Made by a program: the position numbers and the translations under genes. This document shows positions 4,165 through 15,136 of a stretch of 64,000 nt of DNA, piece by piece (position 1 is the stretch's first letter; every line of letters starts with the position of its first letter). The notes beneath the pieces are model-generated. The model worked only from the letters and a program-made list of their open reading frames with translations. It searched no databases and was not told the DNA's origin. The stretch comes from Ignavibacteriota bacterium (GTDB lineage Bacteria; Bacteroidota; Ignavibacteria; UBA10030): positions 512,001 through 576,000 of the forward strand of contig CAVSHO010000009.1 of the NCBI GenBank assembly GCA_963727825.1, given 5' to 3'.

Positions 4165-5190
4165 TTAATCGCTTGTTGCTAATTTTACCGCCGCTTCCAG
4201 AACTTGTTTCACGGTTATCTGTTCCATACAATCACTTCCCCGACACTTGCCGCCCTTGCAACGTGGACATTGTATTGGGTCGGGAACAAATATTGCTTTC
4301 TTGTTAGTCAGCGGGCCCCAGCGTTTAGGACTCATCACGTGTACTGGTGCAAAAAATCCCACAACCGGAGTTCCAACTGCTGCTGCAATATGCAACGGAC
4401 CGGTAGAATTTGCCACAAATAACTTTGCCGTTTGAATGAATGCTGCAAATTCTTTTAAACTCAAATCACTGACGAAAGACTTCACCCCTTCTCCAGCGTT
4501 GTGAGCTACAGTATACACCAATTCTGTTTCAGCTTTTCCGCCAGTAATAACAACATAAAATCCACGTTTCTTCAATTCAGAAGCAAGCAGCGCAAAGTTT
4601 TCCGGTTTCCAATCGTGCGCCGAACCACCGCTGCCGGGATGCAACAATACTAATCGGTCAGTATCCAAAATTCCAATTGATTTGCGTATTTCAGAAGCTG
4701 TTTCTCTTTCTTGTTCGGAAATTATGATCTTTACTTCAGGCTTCCACGATACTGTACATCCCAAACCTTTTAAAAGTGAAAGATTATATTCAGCTTCATG
4801 CTTCTCTACGGTTTTGCGATGCTCGAAAATTTTTCTGTTGAATAAAAACGAATACCATCGGTAACCGGTTCCGACGCGGATCGGGATTCGTGCCAACCAT
4901 AATAAAAGAGCAATTCGGAACCTTGGAAATGCGACTACAGCCGCATCAAACTGTGCGCGGCGAAGTTCCGTCAGCATCTCAAAGAATGGCTTTGGCGCCA
5001 CTTCTCTATTATAGTAAAGAACGTTTGCAATTCCTTCCACCAAGCTCTCTGTATATGAATTCAACAACATTGCAACGCGTGCACTGGGAAAATTCGACTT
5101 CAGCGCTTCGATTGTAGGGAGTGTAAGGATCACATCTCCGATGCGGTCGGTTCGAACGACTAAAATATTCTGCAAGAGCTGTTTTTTCAC
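4165..5190 (-). CDS. Glycosyltransferase family 9 (LPS heptosyltransferase-like)
   Basis: ILVVRTDRIGDVIL, LHPGSGG, ANSTGPLHIAAAVGTP motifs. Likely GTG start at 5190. Confidence 0.9.
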   Translation of the reverse strand: MKKQLLQNILVVRTDRIGDVILTLPTIEALKSNFPSARVAMLLNSYTESLVEGIANVLYYNREVAPKPFFEMLTELRRAQFDAAVVAFPRFRIALLLWLARIPIRVGTGYRWYSFLFNRKIFEHRKTVEKHEAEYNLSLLKGLGCTVSWKPEVKIIISEQERETASEIRKSIGILDTDRLVLLHPGSGGSAHDWKPENFALLASELKKRGFYVVITGGKAETELVYTVAHNAGEGVKSFVSDLSLKEFAAFIQTAKLFVANSTGPLHIAAAVGTPVVGFFAPVHVMSPKRWGPLTNKKAIFVPDPIQCPRCKGGKCRGSDCMEQITVKQVLEAAVKLATSD

Positions 5191-5420
5191 GCAATTAGTT
5201 GATGAATCTTGAATCAATATAATGAGCGATGGTGGGAGATGCAAGGAATGGGCGCCAAGAGCGTTGACTCTCCCCTAAACCTTTCCGATATTAAATTACT
5301 TATCTATAACAATCTGCATTTATCTCGCTCGTAAAAACAAGCGGGACTGCCCAGCTGTTCACACCGACATGAACGGCGGCAGCATTCGTTCAACAAAACA
5401 AAAAATACATAGGTGTCATT

Positions 5421-6752
5421 ATGAAACGTGCCAAAGTGATCATCATGGGCGCTGCGGGTCGGGATTTCCATAACTTCAACACCGTTTTCCGCAAAGACGA
5501 TCGCTACGAAGTCGTCGCTTTTACTGTAACACAAATTCCTAATATTGAAGAACGGAAATATCCCGCCGAACTATCGGGTGCGCTTTATCCCAACGGTATT
5601 CCAATTTTTCCGGAATCGGAATTACCACGCCTCATCAAAGAGTTAAATGTCGATGAAGTCGTCTTCGCATATTCGGATGTGCCGTTCAATTATGTAATGA
5701 GTAAAGCTGCTCTAGTAATAGCGTCTGGATCTGATTTTAAATTGCAGGGCGCTCGACCCACAATGTTGAAGAGTAAAGTTCCTGTCATCGCCGTGGTTGC
5801 TGTACGCACAGGCGCCGGGAAAAGTCAAACCTCACGCAAGGTGTGCAATTTGCTTCGCGCAGCCGGAAAGAAGGTCGTTGCTATCCGTCACCCGATGCCA
5901 TATGGCGATTTAGTAAAGCAAAAAGTACAGCGCTATTCTTCCATCGACGACTTAAAGAATTACGAATGTACAGTAGAAGAAATGGAGGAATACGAGCCGC
6001 ATATAGTCAATGGAACGATCATTTATGCCGGTGTTGATTACGAAGCGATCCTCCACGAAGCCGAAAAAGAGGCCGATGTTATTGTGTGGGATGGTGGAAA
6101 CAACGATATGTCATTCTATCAACCCGATCTCACCATCGTTGTCGCTGATCCGCACCGGGCAGGGCACGAAATATCTTATTATCCAGGCGCAGTCAACATT
6201 CATCTTGCCGACGTTGTCGTTATCAATAAAATAGATACGTCATCCAGAATAAATATTGATATTGTTCGGAAGAACATCGTCAGCGTTAATCCGAAAGCAA
6301 TAATAATCGAAGCGGCATCTCCAATAAGTGTGGAAGACGAATCGGTCATTCGTAATAAGCGCGTCCTTGTAGTGGAAGACGGCCCAACGCTAACACACGG
6401 CGAGATGACATACGGCGCCGGCCACGTTGCCGCTCGGAAGTACGGTGCAAAAGAGATTGTCGATCCGCGCCCATGGGTGGTCAATTCTATAGCTGAAACT
6501 TTTAAAAAATATCCACATATTGGAACGTTACTGCCGGCAATGGGGTATGGCGGAAAACAGATAAAAGATCTGGAAACAACTATTAACAGAGTTGAATGTG
6601 ATTCCGTCATTATCGGTACGCCGATTGATCTCCGCCGCATTATCAAGATCAAAAAACCAAGTACTCGTATTTATTACGAGCTGGAAGAAATCGCAAAACC
6701 GAATTTAAATGAGATTTTGACCGGCTTCATGAAGAAACATGGCTTGAAATAA
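5421..6752 (+). CDS. arcE: Arginine synthetase (ArcE)-like P-loop protein (often annotated GTPase or cyclic 2,3-diphosphoglycerate synthetase homolog)
   Basis: [12 protein letters not shown]-terminus, P-loop [41 protein letters not shown]; immediately upstream of OTC and carbamate kinase. Confidence 0.8.
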
Positions 6753-6759
6753 TATTCTC

Positions 6760-6789
6760 TGTAGAGACGCAGCATGCTGCGTCTCTACA
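6760..6789. repeat. Perfect 30-bp GTAG-type REP-like palindrome
   Basis: TGTAGAGACGCAGCATGCTGCGTCTCTACA is its own reverse complement; it lies between arcE and the OTC gene. Confidence 0.85.
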
Positions 6790-6814
6790 ATCGCATTAAC
6801 AGGAGAACAAAATT

Positions 6815-7828
6815 ATGAAACGAGATTTTCTTACTATCGCTGATTGGTCGGGGAAAGAGTTGCTCCAAATCCTCGACCTTTCAAAAAAAATGAAGGCAGA
6901 TCCAAAAAAGTTTGCCAAATCATTGGAAGGCAAATCGGTTGCATTGATTTTTGAAAAACAATCGCTCCGTACTCACGTCACGTTCGAAATCGGCATCAAA
7001 CAACTCGGCGCAAATACTGTTTATCTGACGAATGCAGATATCAGTCTTGGCAAACGCGAATCGGTTTACGACACAGCAAAGAATTTGGAGCGATGGGTCG
7101 ATGCAATCGTAATCAGAACGTTTGCTCATAAAAATATCATCGATTTAGCAGCCAATGCATCATCGTGTATTGTCAACGCGCTGACGGACTTTGAACATCC
7201 TTGTCAGGCGGTTGGAGATTTTCTCACTATTCAAGAGCATCTTGGCTCTTTTAAAGGTAAGAAATTTGCGTGGGTTGGCGACGGTAACAACGTATGCCAC
7301 TCGCTTATGCTATTGTCGGTAAAAGTCGGAATGAATTTTACTGCAATCACACCAGCTGGATTTCTGCCGGATGCAGGCGTAATAGAACTTGCTAAAGAAA
7401 TTGCAGCTTCGACTGGCGCAAAAATAGAAATCTCAACAAATCCTATTGAGGGTGTACGTGATGCCGATGTTATTTACACGGATGTATGGGTTAGTATGGG
7501 ACAAGAAACTGATCGCGAAACAAAAATGAAAGCTTTCGCCGGATTTCAGGTCAATGCAGAATTAATGGAAAAGGCAAAACCTACTGCTGTTTTTATGCAT
7601 TGCTTGCCAGCGCATCGCGGAGAAGAGGTGACAGATGAAGTGATGGACTCAACTCAGTCCATTGTGTTCGATGAAGCAGAGAATAGGCTTCACACACAAA
7701 AAGCAATCATCTACATGTTGTTGAAGGGACAGAGTCGTGAAAAACTCAATACTCGTAGCGGTCGGCGGAAACTCTCTCATTCGCGCGGGACAACGCGGAA
7801 CAATAGCAGAGCAGCGCGAAAACGCTAG
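6815..7828 (+). CDS. argF: Ornithine carbamoyltransferase
   Basis: FEKQSLRT, HPCQ, GDGNNV, DVWVSMG and HCLP motifs; AGGAG RBS upstream. The Arg-rich tail overlaps the next gene by 92 bp. Confidence 0.9.
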   Translation: MKRDFLTIADWSGKELLQILDLSKKMKADPKKFAKSLEGKSVALIFEKQSLRTHVTFEIGIKQLGANTVYLTNADISLGKRESVYDTAKNLERWVDAIVIRTFAHKNIIDLAANASSCIVNALTDFEHPCQAVGDFLTIQEHLGSFKGKKFAWVGDGNNVCHSLMLLSVKVGMNFTAITPAGFLPDAGVIELAKEIAASTGAKIEISTNPIEGVRDADVIYTDVWVSMGQETDRETKMKAFAGFQVNAELMEKAKPTAVFMHCLPAHRGEEVTDEVMDSTQSIVFDEAENRLHTQKAIIYMLLKGQSREKLNTRSGRRKLSHSRGTTRNNSRAARKR

Positions 7829-8675
7829 GATCACTACTGAGTTTATAGCTGGAATTGTTGGACGCGGATTTACGCTCGTCGTTACTCATGGAAACGGCCC
7901 GCAGGTCGGAGCACAGCTACTGCGCTCAGAAGCCGGTTCTTCTCAGACATATTCTCTCCCGTTAGATATCTGCGTGGCAATGACACAAGGTGAGATTGGT
8001 TTTGCCTTACAAAATTCCATGCAGATGGCGTTTCGGAAACATGGAATCAATCGTCAAGTAGTTACTATTGTTACACAGGTGGTTGTTGATAAGAACGATC
8101 CTGCATTTCAGCGTCCGACCAAACCGATTGGGCCATTCTATTCCAAAGAAACTGCAGAACGCAAACGAAAAGAGTTAGGATGGAGTATTATTGAAGATGC
8201 AGCTCGCGGTTATCGGCGCGTCGTTCCCTCTCCTCTACCGAAAGACATTGTCGAACTTGAAGTCATCAAAGGCTGTCTCGAAAGCAACATCGTTGTTGTT
8301 GCAGTCGGCGGTGGTGGTGTTCCTGTAATTTATGAAGATGGAGAAATGAAAGGTATTGAAGCAGTAATTGATAAAGATCGCGCATCTGCGATGCTCGCCG
8401 CTAAATTAGGCATTGAACATTTTATTATCTCCACCGAAGTATCTGAAGTATACATCAATTACAAAAGATCGAATCAGCAGATATTACGCAGCATCACAAT
8501 AGCGGAAGCAAAGAAGTATGTTGCCGATGGACAGTTTAGCGAAGGAAGTATGAAACCAAAGATTGAAGCTGCAATCGATTTTCTCAACAGTGGCGGCAAG
8601 GTTGTCACGATTACCGATCCGGAACATCTCATCGCCGCGCTCGATGGCGAAGCAGGAACGAGAATAACAAAATGA
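7737..8675 (+). CDS. arcC: Carbamate kinase
   Basis: VAVGGNSL, THGNGPQVG, PTKPIGPFY, GYRRVVPSP, EAVIDKD and GSMKPK motifs. Confidence 0.95.
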   Translation: MKNSILVAVGGNSLIRAGQRGTIAEQRENARITTEFIAGIVGRGFTLVVTHGNGPQVGAQLLRSEAGSSQTYSLPLDICVAMTQGEIGFALQNSMQMAFRKHGINRQVVTIVTQVVVDKNDPAFQRPTKPIGPFYSKETAERKRKELGWSIIEDAARGYRRVVPSPLPKDIVELEVIKGCLESNIVVVAVGGGGVPVIYEDGEMKGIEAVIDKDRASAMLAAKLGIEHFIISTEVSEVYINYKRSNQQILRSITIAEAKKYVADGQFSEGSMKPKIEAAIDFLNSGGKVVTITDPEHLIAALDGEAGTRITK

Positions 8676-8728
8676 ACATCGTAGAATAGGGTTAATTTGT
8701 CCTTATTAAGCCAAATCAAGGAACGAAC

Positions 8729-9646
8729 ATGAAGCTTCAACACATCATCGAATCCCAGCAATTTACACTTCCGATGCTTAACGAACTATTTAATCTTGCA
8801 GATCAAATGGGAAGTATTGTCATACGCGGGGGTACGTTAGATTATCAACATAGAATTATGGCATCGCTTTTTTATGAGCCTTCGACTCGGACACGATTCT
8901 CTTTTGAGTCCGCAATGTTACGACTTGGCGGCAAGATCATGTCCACTGAACATGCACAGGATTTTTCTTCTGTTTCGTACGGTGAATCACTGGAAGATAC
9001 AATTCGTGTGGTCGGCAATTACACAGACGTTATCGTCCTCAGACACAATCAGTTGGGAGGAGCTAAACGGGCAGCGGAGGTTTCTTCTGTTCCCATTATC
9101 AATGCCGGCGACGGCAAAGGCGGTCAGCATCCGACACAAGCGCTACTTGATTTATATACTATTTACAAAGAAATCAAAACGATTGACGGGGTCAAAGTAG
9201 CTCTCGTCGGAAATTTATTAGATGGGCGCACTGTTCGTTCGCTTGCTTATTTACTTGGAAAATACGAACGCGTAAAAATTTATTTCATTGCACCGCCGGC
9301 ACTTCAAATGAAACAAGATATTCTTGATTATTTAAATCGCCACAATGTTTGGTATACATTAGAGAGCGACTTCAAAAAAATATTGCCGGAAGTTGATGTC
9401 GTGTATATGACGCGCATCGAAGAACAAAAGATCTCCGCAGCTTCAATAGAGGGACCATTCAAACGTTATTTCATTGACGAAGAAGTAATGAGATTCATGC
9501 GATCCAATGCAATTCTTATGCATCCACTACCACGGCTCAATGAAATTTCACCGACTATAGATACCGATTCTCGTGCGGCGTACTTCCGCCAAACCAAGAA
9601 TGGTGTCTTAATACGAATGGCTCTGCTGGTTTCTACGCTGGATTGA
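8729..9646 (+). CDS. pyrB: Aspartate carbamoyltransferase-like transcarbamylase with a diverged aspartate site
   Basis: FYEPSTRTRFSF, INAGDG..QHPTQ, GRTVRSL and MHPLP are present; SSVSYGE and TRIEEQK replace the canonical ..KGE and TR.QKER. Confidence 0.7.
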   Translation: MKLQHIIESQQFTLPMLNELFNLADQMGSIVIRGGTLDYQHRIMASLFYEPSTRTRFSFESAMLRLGGKIMSTEHAQDFSSVSYGESLEDTIRVVGNYTDVIVLRHNQLGGAKRAAEVSSVPIINAGDGKGGQHPTQALLDLYTIYKEIKTIDGVKVALVGNLLDGRTVRSLAYLLGKYERVKIYFIAPPALQMKQDILDYLNRHNVWYTLESDFKKILPEVDVVYMTRIEEQKISAASIEGPFKRYFIDEEVMRFMRSNAILMHPLPRLNEISPTIDTDSRAAYFRQTKNGVLIRMALLVSTLD

Positions 9647-9676
9647 AGAATGTTGTAGTCGCCTACTTTGACTAAA

Positions 9677-12205
9677 CTATTTTCTAGTCTTATTATTACC
9701 TTTTTTACTTTTCACTATAATCATTGTCACATCATCATGCTGTTCGGCGGAACCGCGAAACTTTTCAACTTTTGTCAGAATTGCATGCTGGATACTTTCT
9801 GCAGACAGATGCCGCTTCACTTTCAACAAATCAACTATAGATTCTTCGCCTAATTGTTGTTTTTCCTCGTTCATCGCCTCAGTAACGCCATCCGTATAGA
9901 AGAGAAATAGGCTATCCGGTTTGATTGGAATCCGTATTTCTTCTATTGCGTCTTCGAACACCGGACCGCGCTCCAATCCTAATCCAATACCGCCGCCTTC
10001 AAGGAATCTAATTCTTCCGTTCAAGTTAAAAAGCGCCTTATTATGTCCAGCTCGGCAAATGCGCACTTCTTTCTTCTTCATGTCGAATAGCGCAAGAATC
10101 ATTGTGATGAATGATCTGCGATCCATGCCGTCGAAAATACGCCGATTAATATTTATAAGCATTTCTTTCGGAGTTTTGTAAATATGCGCCGCAAGCTGGA
10201 CCATTCCCTGGACCTTCGACATATACAAAGCGGCAGACATTCCTTTGCCGGAGACATCTGCTACTACAGCAAGAATTTTATTTGCGTCCAATTGAATGAA
10301 ATCATAGTAGTCGCCGCCAACGCTCAACGCAGGCACTGACACACCAGAAATATCGAGACTGGAAACCTTTGGATTCGCCTTTGGAAATAGGCCCTGTTGA
10401 ATTTTCCGTGCGAGATCCAGCTCTTCTTTAACACGTTGCTGATCTATTTCCGATTTATGCAAGCGCGAGTTTTCGATAGCAATTGCCGCTTGACCTGCAA
10501 CGGTTGCCAGCAAGTTAATATCTTCCTGAGAATAGACCTTACCGGACATTTTTGGCCCAACGTTTATAAATCCTACTAATCGATCCTGCAGAAACATCGG
10601 CACAGCTAGTACAATACCTGAGCGCAGCAACTTTTCCTTTTCTTCATCCTTTAAATCTGTAACGTCATATTCATCGCCAAGCAAATGAAGATCCACCGGT
10701 TTACGTGTTTTCTGCAGGAGCGCCATTAGCGTATAGTCGCCATCGCTAAATACACAATCTGCTTGATCCAGATTCTGTGAAGCCAAATTGCATCCTTCCT
10801 TCTCTCCACAAATAAATACAAATATTTTTTCAATATGCATTGTTGAAGAGAGTCGCGAGACAATTGAATTAAGAATGTGTTCCGTTTCCATCAAGCGTGG
10901 AAGCTCCTGTGTAAATTCCAACAACGCTTGTTGGTAATCGTACCGTTCATGGAAAAATATTCGGTCGATCCCGTTCTGAAAACGCTGCTTGATTGGATCA
11001 AACACAAAAGCGACAACAATAAGCGACGCAACAATGAATAATTGATTATTCTGCACACCAAAAAAGTAATTTACAAGTGTACCAATTCCATAGACGGAGA
11101 CCAGATAGATAGCCGCCAATGCTGCTGTAATAGTTCCATAAATCAAACTACGGCGAATAACAACATCCACATCCATCAATCTGTGCCGAAAGATTGCATA
11201 GCCAAAGAACACTGGCACTACCACAAGCAATAAGACCGGAAAAAGAATTGGTGGATTCAGAAATGCAGCAATAGGATTAATAGTCTGGAGGATAATCGCA
11301 TATGCAAAAATTAGCAAACAAATAGCTACCCCGATAAGCACGGGGCGAAGTTGTGCCCGCTGTTTATATGGTACGGAACTGAAATAACTATGAATAAAGA
11401 TTCCAAACCCAGTAAAGAAAAATCCATAACGGGAAAAGAAGGCAACATTGATCAACCACCGATTATCGATTCCTCTATTAGCTTTCCAAATGATAACTGT
11501 AAAGAGCAGACTTATAAGATAAAGTACAACTGCAAGTGTGATACTTTTGTGTCCTTTTCGTTTTACGGGAAAAAAAAGAAAAAAACGTACAAACAACGGT
11601 GGTCCAAAGATTGAAGCTGCAAGAAATGAGCCCCCCAAAAGTATCAATTGCCAGCGGGGATCTGTTTGAAGATTCTGATTCAATATAGAAAGTCCGAAGA
11701 ACAACATCGCAAGTATGCTAAAACGCGCAAACATACGCTGGATATTCCCTTGCGGTTTTGCCATCACCACAACATAACCGACAAGAAGGAAACCAAGCCC
11801 AAAAAGGAATTGTGCTAAAAATGGTAGGTTTATCAAATTGAGAATCAGAACACGTGCATCGAATTGCGCGCCATTTCGTTCTAAAGTGTACGTGACATAC
11901 GAACCCACTTTTGCATTGATCATTGCTTGAGCATCTAAGTCTTTGGTAAAATTTTTCCCGTCAACTCTTATCAGAATATCACCGTCCTTGATCCCCGCCT
12001 GTTGCGTAACACCGCCGCTTACAATATCTGTAATTAATAAACGGGACTCGCCTTTCGCCACCCAGCGGCATTGATCATTCCCGGTGAGTCGCTCGAACAT
12101 CAGAACTGAAAAATTGATTAGGCAAACACCAAGCACTACAATCGCTATCAGTGTATAGAGAATTCTGATAGATCTTGCTGATAAATTAGAAAATGGATTT
12201 ATCAT
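9677..12205 (-). CDS. Membrane-bound PP2C/SpoIIE (RsbU-like) phosphatase with PDZ and GAF domains
   Basis: PDZ-like segment (AGIKDGDILIRVDG), about 8 further TMs, GAF, then VGGDYYD, VADVSGKG, YTDGVTEA and QHDDVT. Confidence 0.88.
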   Translation of the reverse strand: MINPFSNLSARSIRILYTLIAIVVLGVCLINFSVLMFERLTGNDQCRWVAKGESRLLITDIVSGGVTQQAGIKDGDILIRVDGKNFTKDLDAQAMINAKVGSYVTYTLERNGAQFDARVLILNLINLPFLAQFLFGLGFLLVGYVVVMAKPQGNIQRMFARFSILAMLFFGLSILNQNLQTDPRWQLILLGGSFLAASIFGPPLFVRFFLFFPVKRKGHKSITLAVVLYLISLLFTVIIWKANRGIDNRWLINVAFFSRYGFFFTGFGIFIHSYFSSVPYKQRAQLRPVLIGVAICLLIFAYAIILQTINPIAAFLNPPILFPVLLLVVVPVFFGYAIFRHRLMDVDVVIRRSLIYGTITAALAAIYLVSVYGIGTLVNYFFGVQNNQLFIVASLIVVAFVFDPIKQRFQNGIDRIFFHERYDYQQALLEFTQELPRLMETEHILNSIVSRLSSTMHIEKIFVFICGEKEGCNLASQNLDQADCVFSDGDYTLMALLQKTRKPVDLHLLGDEYDVTDLKDEEKEKLLRSGIVLAVPMFLQDRLVGFINVGPKMSGKVYSQEDINLLATVAGQAAIAIENSRLHKSEIDQQRVKEELDLARKIQQGLFPKANPKVSSLDISGVSVPALSVGGDYYDFIQLDANKILAVVADVSGKGMSAALYMSKVQGMVQLAAHIYKTPKEMLININRRIFDGMDRRSFITMILALFDMKKKEVRICRAGHNKALFNLNGRIRFLEGGGIGLGLERGPVFEDAIEEIRIPIKPDSLFLFYTDGVTEAMNEEKQQLGEESIVDLLKVKRHLSAESIQHAILTKVEKFRGSAEQHDDVTMIIVKSKKGNNKTRK

Positions 12206-12328: not shown

Positions 12329-15136
12329 TTAATTCCTCACGACTCCAAAAATCGGGTAGCCTATGCTGAAATATAAGACAAAAGGCCCAAAGCTCACCGG
12401 ATGATGCAACAAATCAGTTCGGAGATAGAAACTTCGACCCAAAGAAAAATCAGCAGGGCCAATCGGCGTATCTAACCCGAGAGTAATGCCAATGCCATGC
12501 TTAAAATCTTCTAAGCGCATTTCTTCTGTTTTTAACCACACCGCCCCCAAATCGTAGCGCGCTTTAAAGTAGGTATCGAAAAAGATCGAAAATGGAAGCT
12601 TGTACTGGTATTCCAAACTCGCTACCATTAACTGCCTGCCGCGCGCATTGTCTTCACGAAATCCAAAGAAATTTTCCTGCCCGCCAAGCGAGAACTCTTC
12701 GCTGATAGGCAGGGTCTCATCCGCAACACCAATCATAAACTTTGGATGAAGAGTAAGATTCTCGACGATGGTTTGATATCTTTCATATGAGAAAAACATT
12801 TTTGTAAATCCCACAGCATTTACCAATTTTATTAATGCCGATTCGTATGAAAAATTAATAACGATGCCATCTGTAGGGAATGGCAATTTATCTTGGGTAT
12901 CTATATTAGTTCCAAATCGGATAGATGAAATGTTGTATTCTTGATTTGCAAAAGGTTGATTGTCAACTTCAAACGCCTGATTGTAAATGTCATACACCCT
13001 GTGATGTTCTAATTTTCCTTCAATCGTAACACTTCCTAACCGTTCGAGTTGTGTTCCAAAGCTCGCTGAGCCGCCTTCACGCACCTCCCGATATTCTCCA
13101 ACTATTTCCCGTTCAAACAAATATGGATCGCTTGACGGCACATCATCATAAACATTCACATCTCGGCTGAGAGAATACACTTTAAGACCAAATGTCAAAT
13201 AGGAATTAAAGATTCGGGTCGCTTTCAATTCTCCAAGATAGGTCTGGTTATTAGTGCCTCCGCCAATTAGCAAGCCGAGTTCGGCGCCAGCCCCGAATAA
13301 ATTTTCATTCCGAATATCAATCGATGGTTGGATATTGCGTTCATTATCTATTCGCAAACCGAAGCGAATCAATTCCGTACTTCGCTCTCGCGCTTTGATA
13401 GTAGCTATATTGAGTTTTCCAGTGCTGTCTTCATAATGAGTAGTAACAAGTATCTGCTCAAAAAGACTGGTGCCATAGAGATTTGAGATTCCAGCGGCAA
13501 CTTTAGAAATATTGAAAAGACTCTGATTTTTAAACGGCAGTTCCCGCCAAATAATCCAATCGCGAGACTTCTTTGTGCCGACAATATCAATACGATATAT
13601 TGTACCTTCGTCAAGTGTTACCGTCGCTGTAGCGGATAAAGAATCGAGTTGTATATCAGTTACATGGGCAAGGGAATAGCCTGCAGTGCGGTAAATTGCG
13701 AGCAACCGTTCAATAGCTCGCTCTATCAACTGCGTGTTTATATATTTGCCGAGCAGTGGTTGAAACACAGTAAGCAGTGTGTCGGAACTAAAAACCTGAT
13801 TACCCAAGATTTTTACGTTATGAAGAATTGGATTATGTACGCTGCGGATTTTAATTATTGTAGAGTCGGCGTACTGTTCTACAATTCCATCCATAGAAGC
13901 GTACTCACCTCTGCTGTACAAATCGTTCATGAAACAGTGTAAGTCCATTTCTGTTATCCAACCGCGCGTCTCGTACATTTGAAGACTATCTTGAAATGCC
14001 GGCGGCAATGAGTCTGAGCAAGAAAACCGAGGCGACTTGTACCGCACGGTACTATCTGCGCGATACAACTTGAGAGTGCGATCATCTATAAGTTTCTTCA
14101 AAGCGGGAATTATTTTTTCGGCAGAAAATTCTCCAGCAGTAATCAACGAATCGGTACCGGTAAAATCAGAAGCCAGATGATCACCTAATCTCGGTGTAAT
14201 AACAATATCTGCTTTGGCTCGTGCAAGCTTATTTGCTTCTTGCATCATAATCGTTGTAATCTGATCTGCAACTTCCCAAGGCGCATTGAGTTTGCCCTTT
14301 GGCCTTAGCGAACTTGCCATATCAACAGCAATAATAATATCTGCTTTTTCCGCAATGGCAACATCTACTGGAAGATTATCTACTAAGCCTCCGTCAAGAA
14401 GCTGCATAGAATCGCGCGGCACACTGCTGAATATCAATGGTACTGACATGCTGGCACGCAATGCTTCCGTCATATCACCGCGATCTATCACGATCCTTTT
14501 TCCTGTGACAAGATCTGTGGTAACAGCACGGAATGGAATACGAAGATCGTCAAAACTAGGATTGGGATGGTAAAGTCCCTGCAGTGTAAGGAGGTTGAGA
14601 TAATTTGATAATCGTCGTCCTGTAGAAAACGCTTGTGGAATAACTGGCTCCAGACCTTCAAATCGCAAAACAAGAACGCTTTTATCGCGCGCAATTTTTT
14701 GATCAAGAAAGAGATCGCGGCGTTTCGATTCGTCACTATAACTTAGAAGATCGTCCCAATTTGTCGTATCTACTAAACGTTGAAGTTGATCGGTTGAATA
14801 TCCCATCGCGTATAAACCGCCTATTACACTGCCTATACTCGTGCCGACAATCAGATCGGCAGGGATATTGTTGTGTTCTAAAACTCGAATTACACCAATA
14901 GCTGCGATGCCGCGTGCGCCGCCGCCGCTAAGCACTAGTGCAATGCGCGGCCGCCGTACCAATTGGATAGGATTCAATTTAGGATATCGTGATTTAACTT
15001 CACGAATATCCGGCTTGATAAGGGTTATGCGAGTCTGCGGCGAGGTAATGTCTTGCGCGCGCGCCAATAATGGCACAACAGCGAACAAAATTATGATTAT
15101 TCTAGATATTTTTTGACGCACAGAGATAGGTACCAA
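12329..15136 (-). CDS. Patatin-like phospholipase fused to POTRA domains and an Omp85/BamA-type barrel
   Basis: Signal peptide; LSGGGARG, GTSIG, DGG; POTRA-like middle region; FSLGG..FFGF and LDTPIGP barrel motifs. Confidence 0.88.
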   Translation of the reverse strand: MVPISVRQKISRIIIILFAVVPLLARAQDITSPQTRITLIKPDIREVKSRYPKLNPIQLVRRPRIALVLSGGGARGIAAIGVIRVLEHNNIPADLIVGTSIGSVIGGLYAMGYSTDQLQRLVDTTNWDDLLSYSDESKRRDLFLDQKIARDKSVLVLRFEGLEPVIPQAFSTGRRLSNYLNLLTLQGLYHPNPSFDDLRIPFRAVTTDLVTGKRIVIDRGDMTEALRASMSVPLIFSSVPRDSMQLLDGGLVDNLPVDVAIAEKADIIIAVDMASSLRPKGKLNAPWEVADQITTIMMQEANKLARAKADIVITPRLGDHLASDFTGTDSLITAGEFSAEKIIPALKKLIDDRTLKLYRADSTVRYKSPRFSCSDSLPPAFQDSLQMYETRGWITEMDLHCFMNDLYSRGEYASMDGIVEQYADSTIIKIRSVHNPILHNVKILGNQVFSSDTLLTVFQPLLGKYINTQLIERAIERLLAIYRTAGYSLAHVTDIQLDSLSATATVTLDEGTIYRIDIVGTKKSRDWIIWRELPFKNQSLFNISKVAAGISNLYGTSLFEQILVTTHYEDSTGKLNIATIKARERSTELIRFGLRIDNERNIQPSIDIRNENLFGAGAELGLLIGGGTNNQTYLGELKATRIFNSYLTFGLKVYSLSRDVNVYDDVPSSDPYLFEREIVGEYREVREGGSASFGTQLERLGSVTIEGKLEHHRVYDIYNQAFEVDNQPFANQEYNISSIRFGTNIDTQDKLPFPTDGIVINFSYESALIKLVNAVGFTKMFFSYERYQTIVENLTLHPKFMIGVADETLPISEEFSLGGQENFFGFREDNARGRQLMVASLEYQYKLPFSIFFDTYFKARYDLGAVWLKTEEMRLEDFKHGIGITLGLDTPIGPADFSLGRSFYLRTDLLHHPVSFGPFVLYFSIGYPIFGVVRN

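Follow-up and report, generated by a model that had tools for sequence, protein, structure and literature searches.

PyrBx, an aspartate transcarbamylase paralog with an altered aspartate site, stands behind carbamate kinase in putative ArcE operons of several bacterial phyla

PyrBx is the last gene of a four-gene unit

The stretch of DNA analyzed here (the window) spans 64,000 nucleotides (nt) of an Ignavibacteriota genome (assembly GCA_963727825.1, contig CAVSHO010000009.1, positions 512,001 to 576,000 of the forward strand), and the coordinates below count from its first letter. We focused on the gene at 8729..9646 (+), which encodes a paralog derived from aspartate transcarbamylase (ATCase), here called PyrBx (P0001). 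It is the last of four same-strand genes that make up one unit, preceded by genes for an ArcE-like protein, ornithine carbamoyltransferase (OTCase), and carbamate kinase (CK). Its residues point to a protein that has kept the site for carbamoyl phosphate (CP) and lost the one for aspartate, and its relatives occupy the same place behind CK in several phyla. Published work is cited by PubMed Central accession.

The unit opens with the ArcE-like gene P0002 (5421..6752, +; 443 aa), which encodes a putative arginine synthetase. At E ≤ 0.001, P0002 matches nothing in Pfam or NCBIfam. Its homologs carry the names "predicted GTPase" or "cyclic 2,3-diphosphoglycerate synthase," and its match in the PDB, to the cyclic 2,3-diphosphoglycerate synthetase 9sxb, is weak (E = 6.2e-5). 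ArcE homologs were described in these same terms by Michimori et al. (PMC11032458). From the homolog names and the weak structure match, which fit that description, we infer that P0002 is a putative ArcE of the TK2200 family. The second gene encodes OTCase (ArcB/ArgF; 6815..7828, +), which scores 402.9 bits against TIGR00658 (cut-off 280.85), and the third encodes CK (ArcC; 7737..8675, +), which scores 384.3 bits against TIGR00746 (cut-off 358.25) over protein residues 4 to 312. PyrBx starts 53 nt past the end of CK.

Divergent genes border the unit, with heptosyltransferase and DUF3108 genes on one side and a gene for a PDZ-GAF-SpoIIE phosphatase on the other. An earlier reading of this DNA, made from its letters alone (the sequence-only reading), had remarked that neither pyrI, pyrC, nor pyrR lies next to PyrBx. 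We found none of the three adjoining it in the window, where its neighbors are the ArcE-like, OTCase, and CK genes upstream and the phosphatase gene downstream. A scan of positions 5000 to 10000 for promoters and terminators returned the level of shuffled sequence (10 versus 9.9 promoter-like and 4 versus 4.2 terminator-like matches) and is uninformative on co-transcription. The end of the OTCase open reading frame (ORF) and the start of the CK ORF overlap by 92 nt (7737-7828), and the OTCase ORF runs about 30 codons beyond its family model. Overlaps of about 55 to 100 nt between these two genes are also seen, by tblastn coordinates, in the related loci L005-L009, L097, and L098.

Residues of the carbamoyl phosphate and aspartate sites

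The PyrBx reading frame (8729-9646, +) is stop-free and encodes a full ATCase-type chain of 305 aa with matches to PF02729 (139.1 bits) and PF00185 (95.3 bits). It passes the ATCase equivalog models TIGR00670 (297.4 bits; cut-off 236.95) and NF002032 (269.9 bits; cut-off 263), and all named sources label its close homologs "aspartate carbamoyltransferase." Is PyrBx, then, an ATCase? The closest solved structure is the Arabidopsis ATCase 6YPO (E = 1.2e-95, residues 2 to 301 aligned). This alignment is gap-free over both motifs and puts a Tyr of PyrBx opposite the loop Lys and RIEEQK opposite RIQRER. Because residues 40 to 303 of PyrBx align to residues 40 to 303 of the Escherichia coli chains, its residue numbers at these sites are those of the E. 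coli enzyme.

On the CP side, the motifs that the sequence-only reading had called intact are indeed found in the translation: STRT at 52-55, HPTQ at 134-137, GRT at 166-168, and HPLP at 265-268. R105 and R229 are present as well. PyrBx thus has the transcarbamylase fold with the CP motifs SxRT, HPxQ, and HxLP. The two unusual codons reported in that reading were checked directly. Codon 84, the site of the 80s-loop Lys in ATCases, is TAC (Tyr; 8978..8980, +) within FSSVSYGES, and codon 231, the site of the RxQxER Gln in ATCases, is GAA (Glu; 9419..9421, +) within MTRIEEQKIS. The segment SSVSYGES aligns to SSVSKGET of the canonical PyrB encoded in the same genome. Additional departures are Asn in place of D162, Lys in place of R234, and one inserted residue (G131) ahead of HPTQ (GDGKGGQHPTQ). 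According to PMC4581275, every known ATCase has the motif RxQxER, which is a defining feature of these enzymes and, together with the 80s and 240s loops, serves for their annotation. PyrBx has neither this motif, which reads RIEEQK, nor Lys at position 84 of the 80s loop, the residue that in ATCases reaches CP and aspartate from the neighboring chain.

K84 and Q231 had been described as strongly conserved in ATCases, and our counts agree: each is present in 38/38 canonical-motif relatives, and the two occur jointly in 135 of the 150 best representatives at 50% identity (K84 in 141 and Q231 in 137 overall). These data confirm that Tyr84 and Glu231 of PyrBx are more than a chance variant. Among the 120 best homologs of PyrBx, which are 70 to 95% identical to it and which we treat as its close family, S52, T53, R54, T55, F79, S80, R105, G131, H134, Q137, and R167 are each found in 120/120 sequences, with R229 in 118/120 and L267 in 119/120. 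At position 231, 115 of these homologs have E and 4 have D, and position 162 is N in 115/120. Position 84 is among the freest of the family (M in 46, A in 28, Y in 24, H in 7, L in 6, R in 3, F in 2, and K in 2). Conservation of the CP-site residues is also 90% or higher, up to invariance, in 32 sequences covering the subclades A, B, and C defined below. By these alignments, PyrBx has an intact CP site (S52, T53, R54, T55, S80, R105, H134, Q137, the P266/L267 loop, R167, and R229 are all retained) and a dismantled aspartate site, in which K84, Q231, D162, R234, and the 240s loop are affected, as is E50 in two subclades.

A clade of ATCase-derived proteins in several phyla

How widely are these changes distributed? 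We collected a wider sample of 80 loci, with one genome per species. Two of them, L015 and L050, have interrupted or incomplete matches to PyrBx, CK, or both, which may represent frameshifts, pseudogenes, or assembly errors. Both were excluded from all group counts and trees, leaving 78 usable loci. The extra residue before HPTQ is present in 40 of these, which together with the window form a clade of 41 rows; the other 38 loci are canonical relatives. The 41 clade rows, of 79 sampled, fall on one side of a branch with a support of 97 by the Shimodaira-Hasegawa-like approximate likelihood ratio test (SH-aLRT), and this was unchanged after deletion of 62 trait-site columns. Canonical ATCases of Terriglobia surround the clade in the first tree (SH-aLRT of 98 for the enclosing set). 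Both trees are quick ones with SH-aLRT support only; the genome's canonical PyrB was the outgroup in the first and was omitted from the second. By these trees, the clade arose once, inside the canonical ATCases of the plant/Acidobacteria type.

E50, N75, K84, D162, Q231, K232, F235, and Y240 are identical in 38/38 canonical relatives and G245 in 33/38, and all of them are replaced in the clade. As judged from this comparison, the loss of K84/Q231 is lineage specific and not a single mutation. Four groups can be told apart. Group A, which includes the window, comprises loci of Ignavibacteriota and Kryptoniota with a variable position 84, N162, and E231 in the gene order arcE-arcB-arcC-pyrBx. 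Group B, mostly from Acidobacteriota, has E84, E162, R or H at 231, and P232; rocD directly follows pyrBx, and arcE leads or follows. Group C (Bacteroidota, Kapaibacteria, Ignavibacteriota, and others) has K or E at 84, A162, and D231 in the order arcB-arcC-pyrBx-rocD-arcE. The 240s loop is three residues shorter in groups B and C, in which E50 is also changed. Group D, a sister subgroup, consists of three loci from different phyla (L016:6001-6921, L017:6055-6927, and L010:1824-2744). R54 is missing from all three, and most of STRT from two. Since a group D protein with a broken STRT passes TIGR00670 at 276.6 bits against the cut-off of 236.95, this ATCase equivalog cut-off is nondiscriminating.

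The E. coli enzyme uses D162 to position Q231, and its closed state is held by E50 and R234. If this is right, the combinations N162/E231, E162/R231, and A162/D231-K84 look like re-pairings within a pocket that no longer reads aspartate.

A second, canonical pyrB in genomes that carry PyrBx

The sequence-only reading had concluded that PyrBx may not be a normal ATCase and had pointed to a separate canonical pyrB with pyrC as a check on this. Such a gene is present. Another contig of the window's genome encodes a canonical PyrR-PyrB-PyrC operon (PyrR, 241.8 bits against a cut-off of 138; PyrB, 408.5 bits against 263 for NF002032; PyrC, 419.5 bits against 279 for TIGR00857), and this PyrB reads SSVSKGET and RIQLER. 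PyrBx is therefore not the genome's only pyrB, and this separate operon, together with the clade-wide loss of K84/Q231, bears out the view that it is no normal housekeeping ATCase. Five further carrier genomes were tested, and each has a canonical pyrB in addition to PyrBx, which lies in pyrR-pyrB-pyrC in three, beside pyrC only in one, and with neither gene in the stretch examined in one. PyrBx is not the cell's pyrimidine ATCase.

The window's genome also encodes carB (as two ORFs), argG, and argH. PyrBx is thus a surplus paralog in an organism with the capacity to make CP, arginine, and pyrimidines by the usual routes. ArcC at 7737-8675 is the single CK over the cut-off in this genome. The OTCase at 6815..7828 is the sole one found; a genome search with the ATCase model gave no other OTCase-like match. 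A YgeW transcarbamylase is encoded elsewhere. No TIGR01078 match for arginine deiminase (arcA) was found in this genome, which is 96.8% complete. Two further features of the genome can be recorded here. The carB matches are two separate ORFs that correspond to the N and C halves (G000:C11:447006-450943), and the argG matches fall in two pieces in overlapping frames (G000:C9:893023-894199), which may reflect a frameshift or an assembly error.

Operon context of PyrBx and of canonical ATCases

Of the clade loci, 38 include 1 kb or more of upstream sequence, and in 36 of these (all but L026 and L043) CK ends at most 400 nt upstream, compared with 6 of 31 canonical loci by the same criterion. The CK-PyrBx pair is almost always found in ArcE-OTCase-CK operons, with or without ornithine aminotransferase. 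To what extent does PyrBx follow ArcE? In a sample of 121 genomes of the window's class, a PyrBx match at 59% identity or more is seen in 33 and ArcE in 77. ArcE is present in 32 of the 33 carriers. With the window's genome set aside, 30 of the remaining 32 carriers have it on the same contig at a distance of no more than 4 kb; 45 of the 77 ArcE genomes have no PyrBx-type gene. The co-occurrence with arcE-arcB-arcC, which the sequence-only reading had put forward for testing, is strong. When ORFs from 40 clade loci were clustered, only OTCase/PyrBx, CK, ArcE, and ornithine aminotransferase recurred in more than four loci. The ORF that directly follows pyrBx in a Kryptoniota locus (L008:7092-7481) is presumably panD (aspartate 1-decarboxylase), a candidate assignment that we take from the start of its sequence only and that is a single case.

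The operon of subgroup D is of a second, purine-type kind, with YgeW, a CysK-like pyridoxal phosphate enzyme, YgeY, CK, PyrBx-D, and MocA. Subgroup D proteins, which are without R54, still stand directly behind CK in all three loci. Across these operon types, the PyrBx clade is fixed behind CK in CP-generating catabolic operons of several phyla.

ATCases with canonical or near-canonical motifs also occur in arcB-arcC(-arcE) clusters (L063, L069, L070, L075, L077, and L078; L099-L101). Six canonical-motif ATCases directly follow arcB-arcC, some with arcE, in five Desulfobacterales-type genomes and one labelled Pseudomonadota. The canonical-motif copy was the genome's only ATCase in 5/5 genomes tested, four with such loci and one from Terriglobia, in which arcB-arcC lies about 4 kb upstream of pyrB. 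Within two families of the window's class, an RIQDEY-type ATCase that has kept K84 and Q231 stands beside arcE or arcB-arcC, and it was the only ATCase in 3/3 genomes tested. Because the canonical or near-canonical copy in these clusters is the genome's only ATCase, a housekeeping pyrB is embedded there in an arginine/CP operon, and because canonical ATCases occupy similar neighborhoods, the linkage of ATCase with this CP hub predates the PyrBx clade and extends beyond it. Such a linkage fits a supply of arginine-derived CP to pyrimidines, as in Thermococcus kodakarensis, whose arginine synthetase pathway supplies pyrimidine CP (PMC13260591).

Sequence constraint and gene loss

At synonymous sites, divergence from all relatives that retain pyrBx is saturated, so our comparison was limited to nonsynonymous divergence (dN). 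Against four relatives, the dN of PyrBx was 0.094, 0.188, 0.202, and 0.227. The corresponding values were 0.125, 0.275, 0.286, and 0.266 for OTCase and 0.116, 0.314, 0.271, and 0.328 for CK, so that PyrBx is below both of its neighbors in 4/4 comparisons.

Both other genomes of the genus lack pyrBx. The gene was deleted, while arcE-arcB-arcC and the flanking phosphatase gene were kept; ArcE is 96% and 92% identical and CK 88% and 82% identical to the window's proteins. The deletion end points differ. L097 keeps a 3' relic of about 193 nt (4970-5164) with an internal TGA, and in L098 (around 5003-5115) the whole gene is gone. Because pyrBx is constrained and yet deleted in genomes of the same genus, we conclude that it is useful but dispensable.

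Possible roles of PyrBx

What does PyrBx do at this position? We tentatively favor the explanation that it is a CP-using transcarbamylase whose partner is not aspartate, a proposal that we place somewhat short of an even chance. In its favor are the separate canonical pyrB, the kept CP site and clade-wide loss of the aspartate site, the single origin of the clade, the constraint on its sequence, and its place beside CK and ArcE. PyrBx would still bind CP, as a trimer, and would shuttle the carbamoyl group between CP and a partner other than aspartate, acting at a CP node shared with CK. It might either drain citrulline-derived CP into an N-carbamoyl product or phosphorolyse an N-carbamoyl compound and so feed CK. 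Carbamoyl transfer is suggested by precedent: co-transcription with CK serves as a mark of catabolic transcarbamylases (PMC6022934), and ATCase-like paralogs beside CK proved to be catabolic transcarbamylases, for example, ureidoglycine carbamoyltransferase (UGTCase; PMC4016543).

Several of our observations weigh against this explanation. Groups A, B, and C share their operon but differ at positions 84, 162, and 231, which is a poor fit to one specific acceptor. Apart from ArcE, OTCase, CK, and ornithine aminotransferase, the 40 clade loci have no conserved gene whose product could synthesize or take up a second ureido substrate. Subgroup D keeps its place after CK without R54, and thus a role without carbamoyl transfer exists, at least there. 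The deletions within the genus count on the same side. The sequence-only reading had proposed a new function for PyrBx, either carbamoylation of another amine or phosphorolysis of an N-carbamoyl compound that feeds CK. The part of that proposal that sets PyrBx apart from normal ATCases has held; a single new specificity has been weakened by the residues of the subclades, the lack of a supplier gene, and the R54-less group D.

One potential alternative, unlikely yet serious, is that PyrBx is a noncatalytic partner of CK, namely, an ATCase relic that binds CP or a nucleotide such as uridine monophosphate (UMP) and has a structural, channeling, or regulatory part at the CK/OTCase node. Such a partner might set whether CP is burnt to ATP or spared. 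The position of CK directly upstream in 36/38 clade loci, the occurrence of the pair in two types of catabolic operon (ArcE and YgeW), and the retention of subgroup D after CK in three loci from different phyla would all be in line with this idea. Acceptor-site residues that vary between subclades are what one would expect if no acceptor is read. Plant ATCase holds UMP by the counterparts of R54, T55, R105, H134, R167, R229, and the PLP loop, with the loop Lys pointing away (PMC7878868), and the residues kept by PyrBx are exactly this UMP-holding set. In addition, channeling of CP from CK to OTCase and ATCase has been reported for Pyrococcus furiosus, as has physical binding between its CK and OTCase (PMC6022934).

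A predicted complex of the window's CK and PyrBx gives this alternative weak support, with a score of 0.52 compared with 0.00 for the best of three controls. Between runs, contacts agree at 92% or more, and the partner has a predicted local distance difference test (pLDDT) value of at least 85. Of 80 solved complexes, 58 reached the mark that we applied, as did 2 of 110 mismatched pairs. Passing scores of 0.60 or less came from only 7 of the 80 solved complexes and from both mismatches, counts that are rough because custom alignments were used. Given these counts, a pass at or below 0.60 is more often wrong than right unless the complex is likely beforehand, and the score of the CK-PyrBx pair lies within this weak band.

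Further evidence speaks against a noncatalytic partner. The residues of catalysis, beyond those that bind phosphate, are invariant in groups A to C, with Q137 and H134 each present in 120/120 close homologs. CK functions alone, and the genomes of the same genus keep it (at 88% and 82% identity) after the deletion of pyrBx. Among 584 longer proteins (E ≤ 1e-30), of which the best is 53% identical, we found no CK-PyrBx fusion, although this is weak evidence; those with a name in the list of 120 are enzymes of plants or of the CAD type, and none belongs to the PyrBx clade. A more specific version of the idea, which we consider doubtful, is that PyrBx is the first transcarbamylase-derived accessory subunit. 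It would have abandoned aspartate catalysis, would sense CP or UMP in the old active site, and would bind CK, controlling whether the CP released from citrulline (or YgeW substrates) goes to ATP formation or stays available for biosynthesis.

It is improbable that PyrBx is still an aspartate transcarbamylase, that is, an arginine-operon isozyme with a reshaped aspartate site that brings arginine-derived CP into pyrimidines. R167 and R229, the arginines that hold the carboxylates of aspartate, are kept, and both ATCase equivalog cut-offs are passed, although the latter point loses its force with the STRT-broken subgroup D, which passes as well. The sole canonical and near-canonical copies (5/5 and 3/3 genomes) that sit in arcB-arcC(-arcE) clusters make ATCase a natural member of this neighborhood, in agreement with the use of the pathway for pyrimidine CP in T. 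kodakarensis (PMC13260591). However, the defining RxQxER (PMC4581275) reads RIEEQK here; K84, D162, and R234 are altered as well, as is E50 in groups B and C; and a separate canonical pyrB is present in every carrier genome tested (5/5 and the window's own). In the E. coli enzyme, activity falls by orders of magnitude when any one of K84, Q231, and R234 is replaced. Finally, it is highly improbable that PyrBx is a decaying, functionless ATCase leftover that arrived with the operon, as the separate deletions in its genus, one with a relic of about 193 nt that contains a TGA, and the 45/77 ArcE genomes of the class sample without such a gene might suggest, because its frame is intact, its dN is below those of OTCase and CK in 4/4 comparisons, its CP-site residues are invariant in the 120 best homologs, and its clade persists across several phyla at a fixed gene position.

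Relation to described transcarbamylases and arginine pathways

With the ATCase catalytic chain (PyrB, EC 2.1.3.2; plant/bacterial ATC II type), PyrBx shares PF02729 and PF00185 over a 300-residue alignment, and with plant ATCase it shares STRT, R105, HPTQ, R167, R229, HPLP, and the Phe-Ser-Ser start of the CP loop (F79 corresponds to plant F161). It differs from ATCase in the Tyr at the loop Lys (a variable position in its family), RIEEQK, Asn162, the extra residue before HPTQ, and the absence of linkage to pyr genes. A catabolic ATCase and a β-alanine transcarbamylase have been raised as unproven ideas (PMC4581275). Barba et al. (2013) distinguished three groups of pseudo-ATCases by HPLA, H[ST]LP, or HSLP together with the loss of R229/Q231, and one CK-adjacent member, Rxyl_2847, was shown to be a UGTCase (PMC4016543). 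Like these proteins, PyrBx is annotated as an ATCase, coexists with a genuine PyrB, keeps STRT and HPTQ, and has lost RxQ, and it is CK adjacent like their group 1. According to the same source, those groups combine HPLA with AIA/AIS/SIA, H[ST]LP with GX[SC], and HSLP with VXP, lie at the root of ATC II, and occur in purine or hydantoin contexts. In contrast, the PyrBx clade keeps HPLP and R229, reads R-I-E/D/R/H, is nested in canonical ATCases, and is found in ArcE operons. With HPLP and R229 kept and an insertion of its own, it is a fourth kind beside the three of that paper.

The arginine synthetase pathway was described only in 2024 (PMC11032458). The three activities of the T. kodakarensis ArcE-ArcB-ArcC system (PMC11032458 and PMC13260591) are held in one operon in the window, with ArcE being putative. 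Arginine deiminase is expected to be absent where ArcE replaces it, and TIGR01078 indeed matched nothing in the window's genome. Many relatives add ornithine aminotransferase, which fits the outlet of the pathway from ornithine to proline/glutamate (PMC11032458). An ATCase-like fourth gene is unmentioned in the main texts of PMC11032458 and PMC13260591, although the supplementary gene-cluster figures of the former might include it. The terms "pyrB" and "aspartate carbamoyltransferase" occur 0 times in the main text of the former and only in the gene list of the methods in the latter. Our literature searches found no description of the PyrBx clade.

For a partner of CK, precedents are the CK of Pyrococcus, which binds transcarbamylases, and the inactive PyrC', which survives as a structural subunit of Pseudomonas ATCase (PMC6022934). 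Those cases involve an active ATCase or OTCase or a dihydroorotase-like partner, whereas binding between PyrBx and CK is suggested by gene order and a weak prediction. A transcarbamylase-derived accessory subunit of CK is not described in the texts covered.

PyrBx is a conserved and constrained extra member of bacterial ArcE operons in several phyla. If it is a transferase, it would bring a new substrate specificity to the transcarbamylase family and a new branch to arginine/CP metabolism; if it acts on CK instead, an enzyme of the pyrimidine pathway would have given rise to a CK partner of a new kind. Because these proteins carry ATCase names and pass the cut-offs despite their missing defining residues, metabolic reconstructions of the genomes concerned count a pyrB that is probably not one.

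Other genes of the window

The phosphatase gene downstream of PyrBx (9677-12205, −) encodes a protein of 842 aa that, by its domain matches, is a PDZ-GAF-SpoIIE/PP2C phosphatase. A gene on the same strand (12329-15136, −) encodes a protein of 935 aa whose domain matches indicate a patatin phospholipase fused to POTRA and Omp85 domains.

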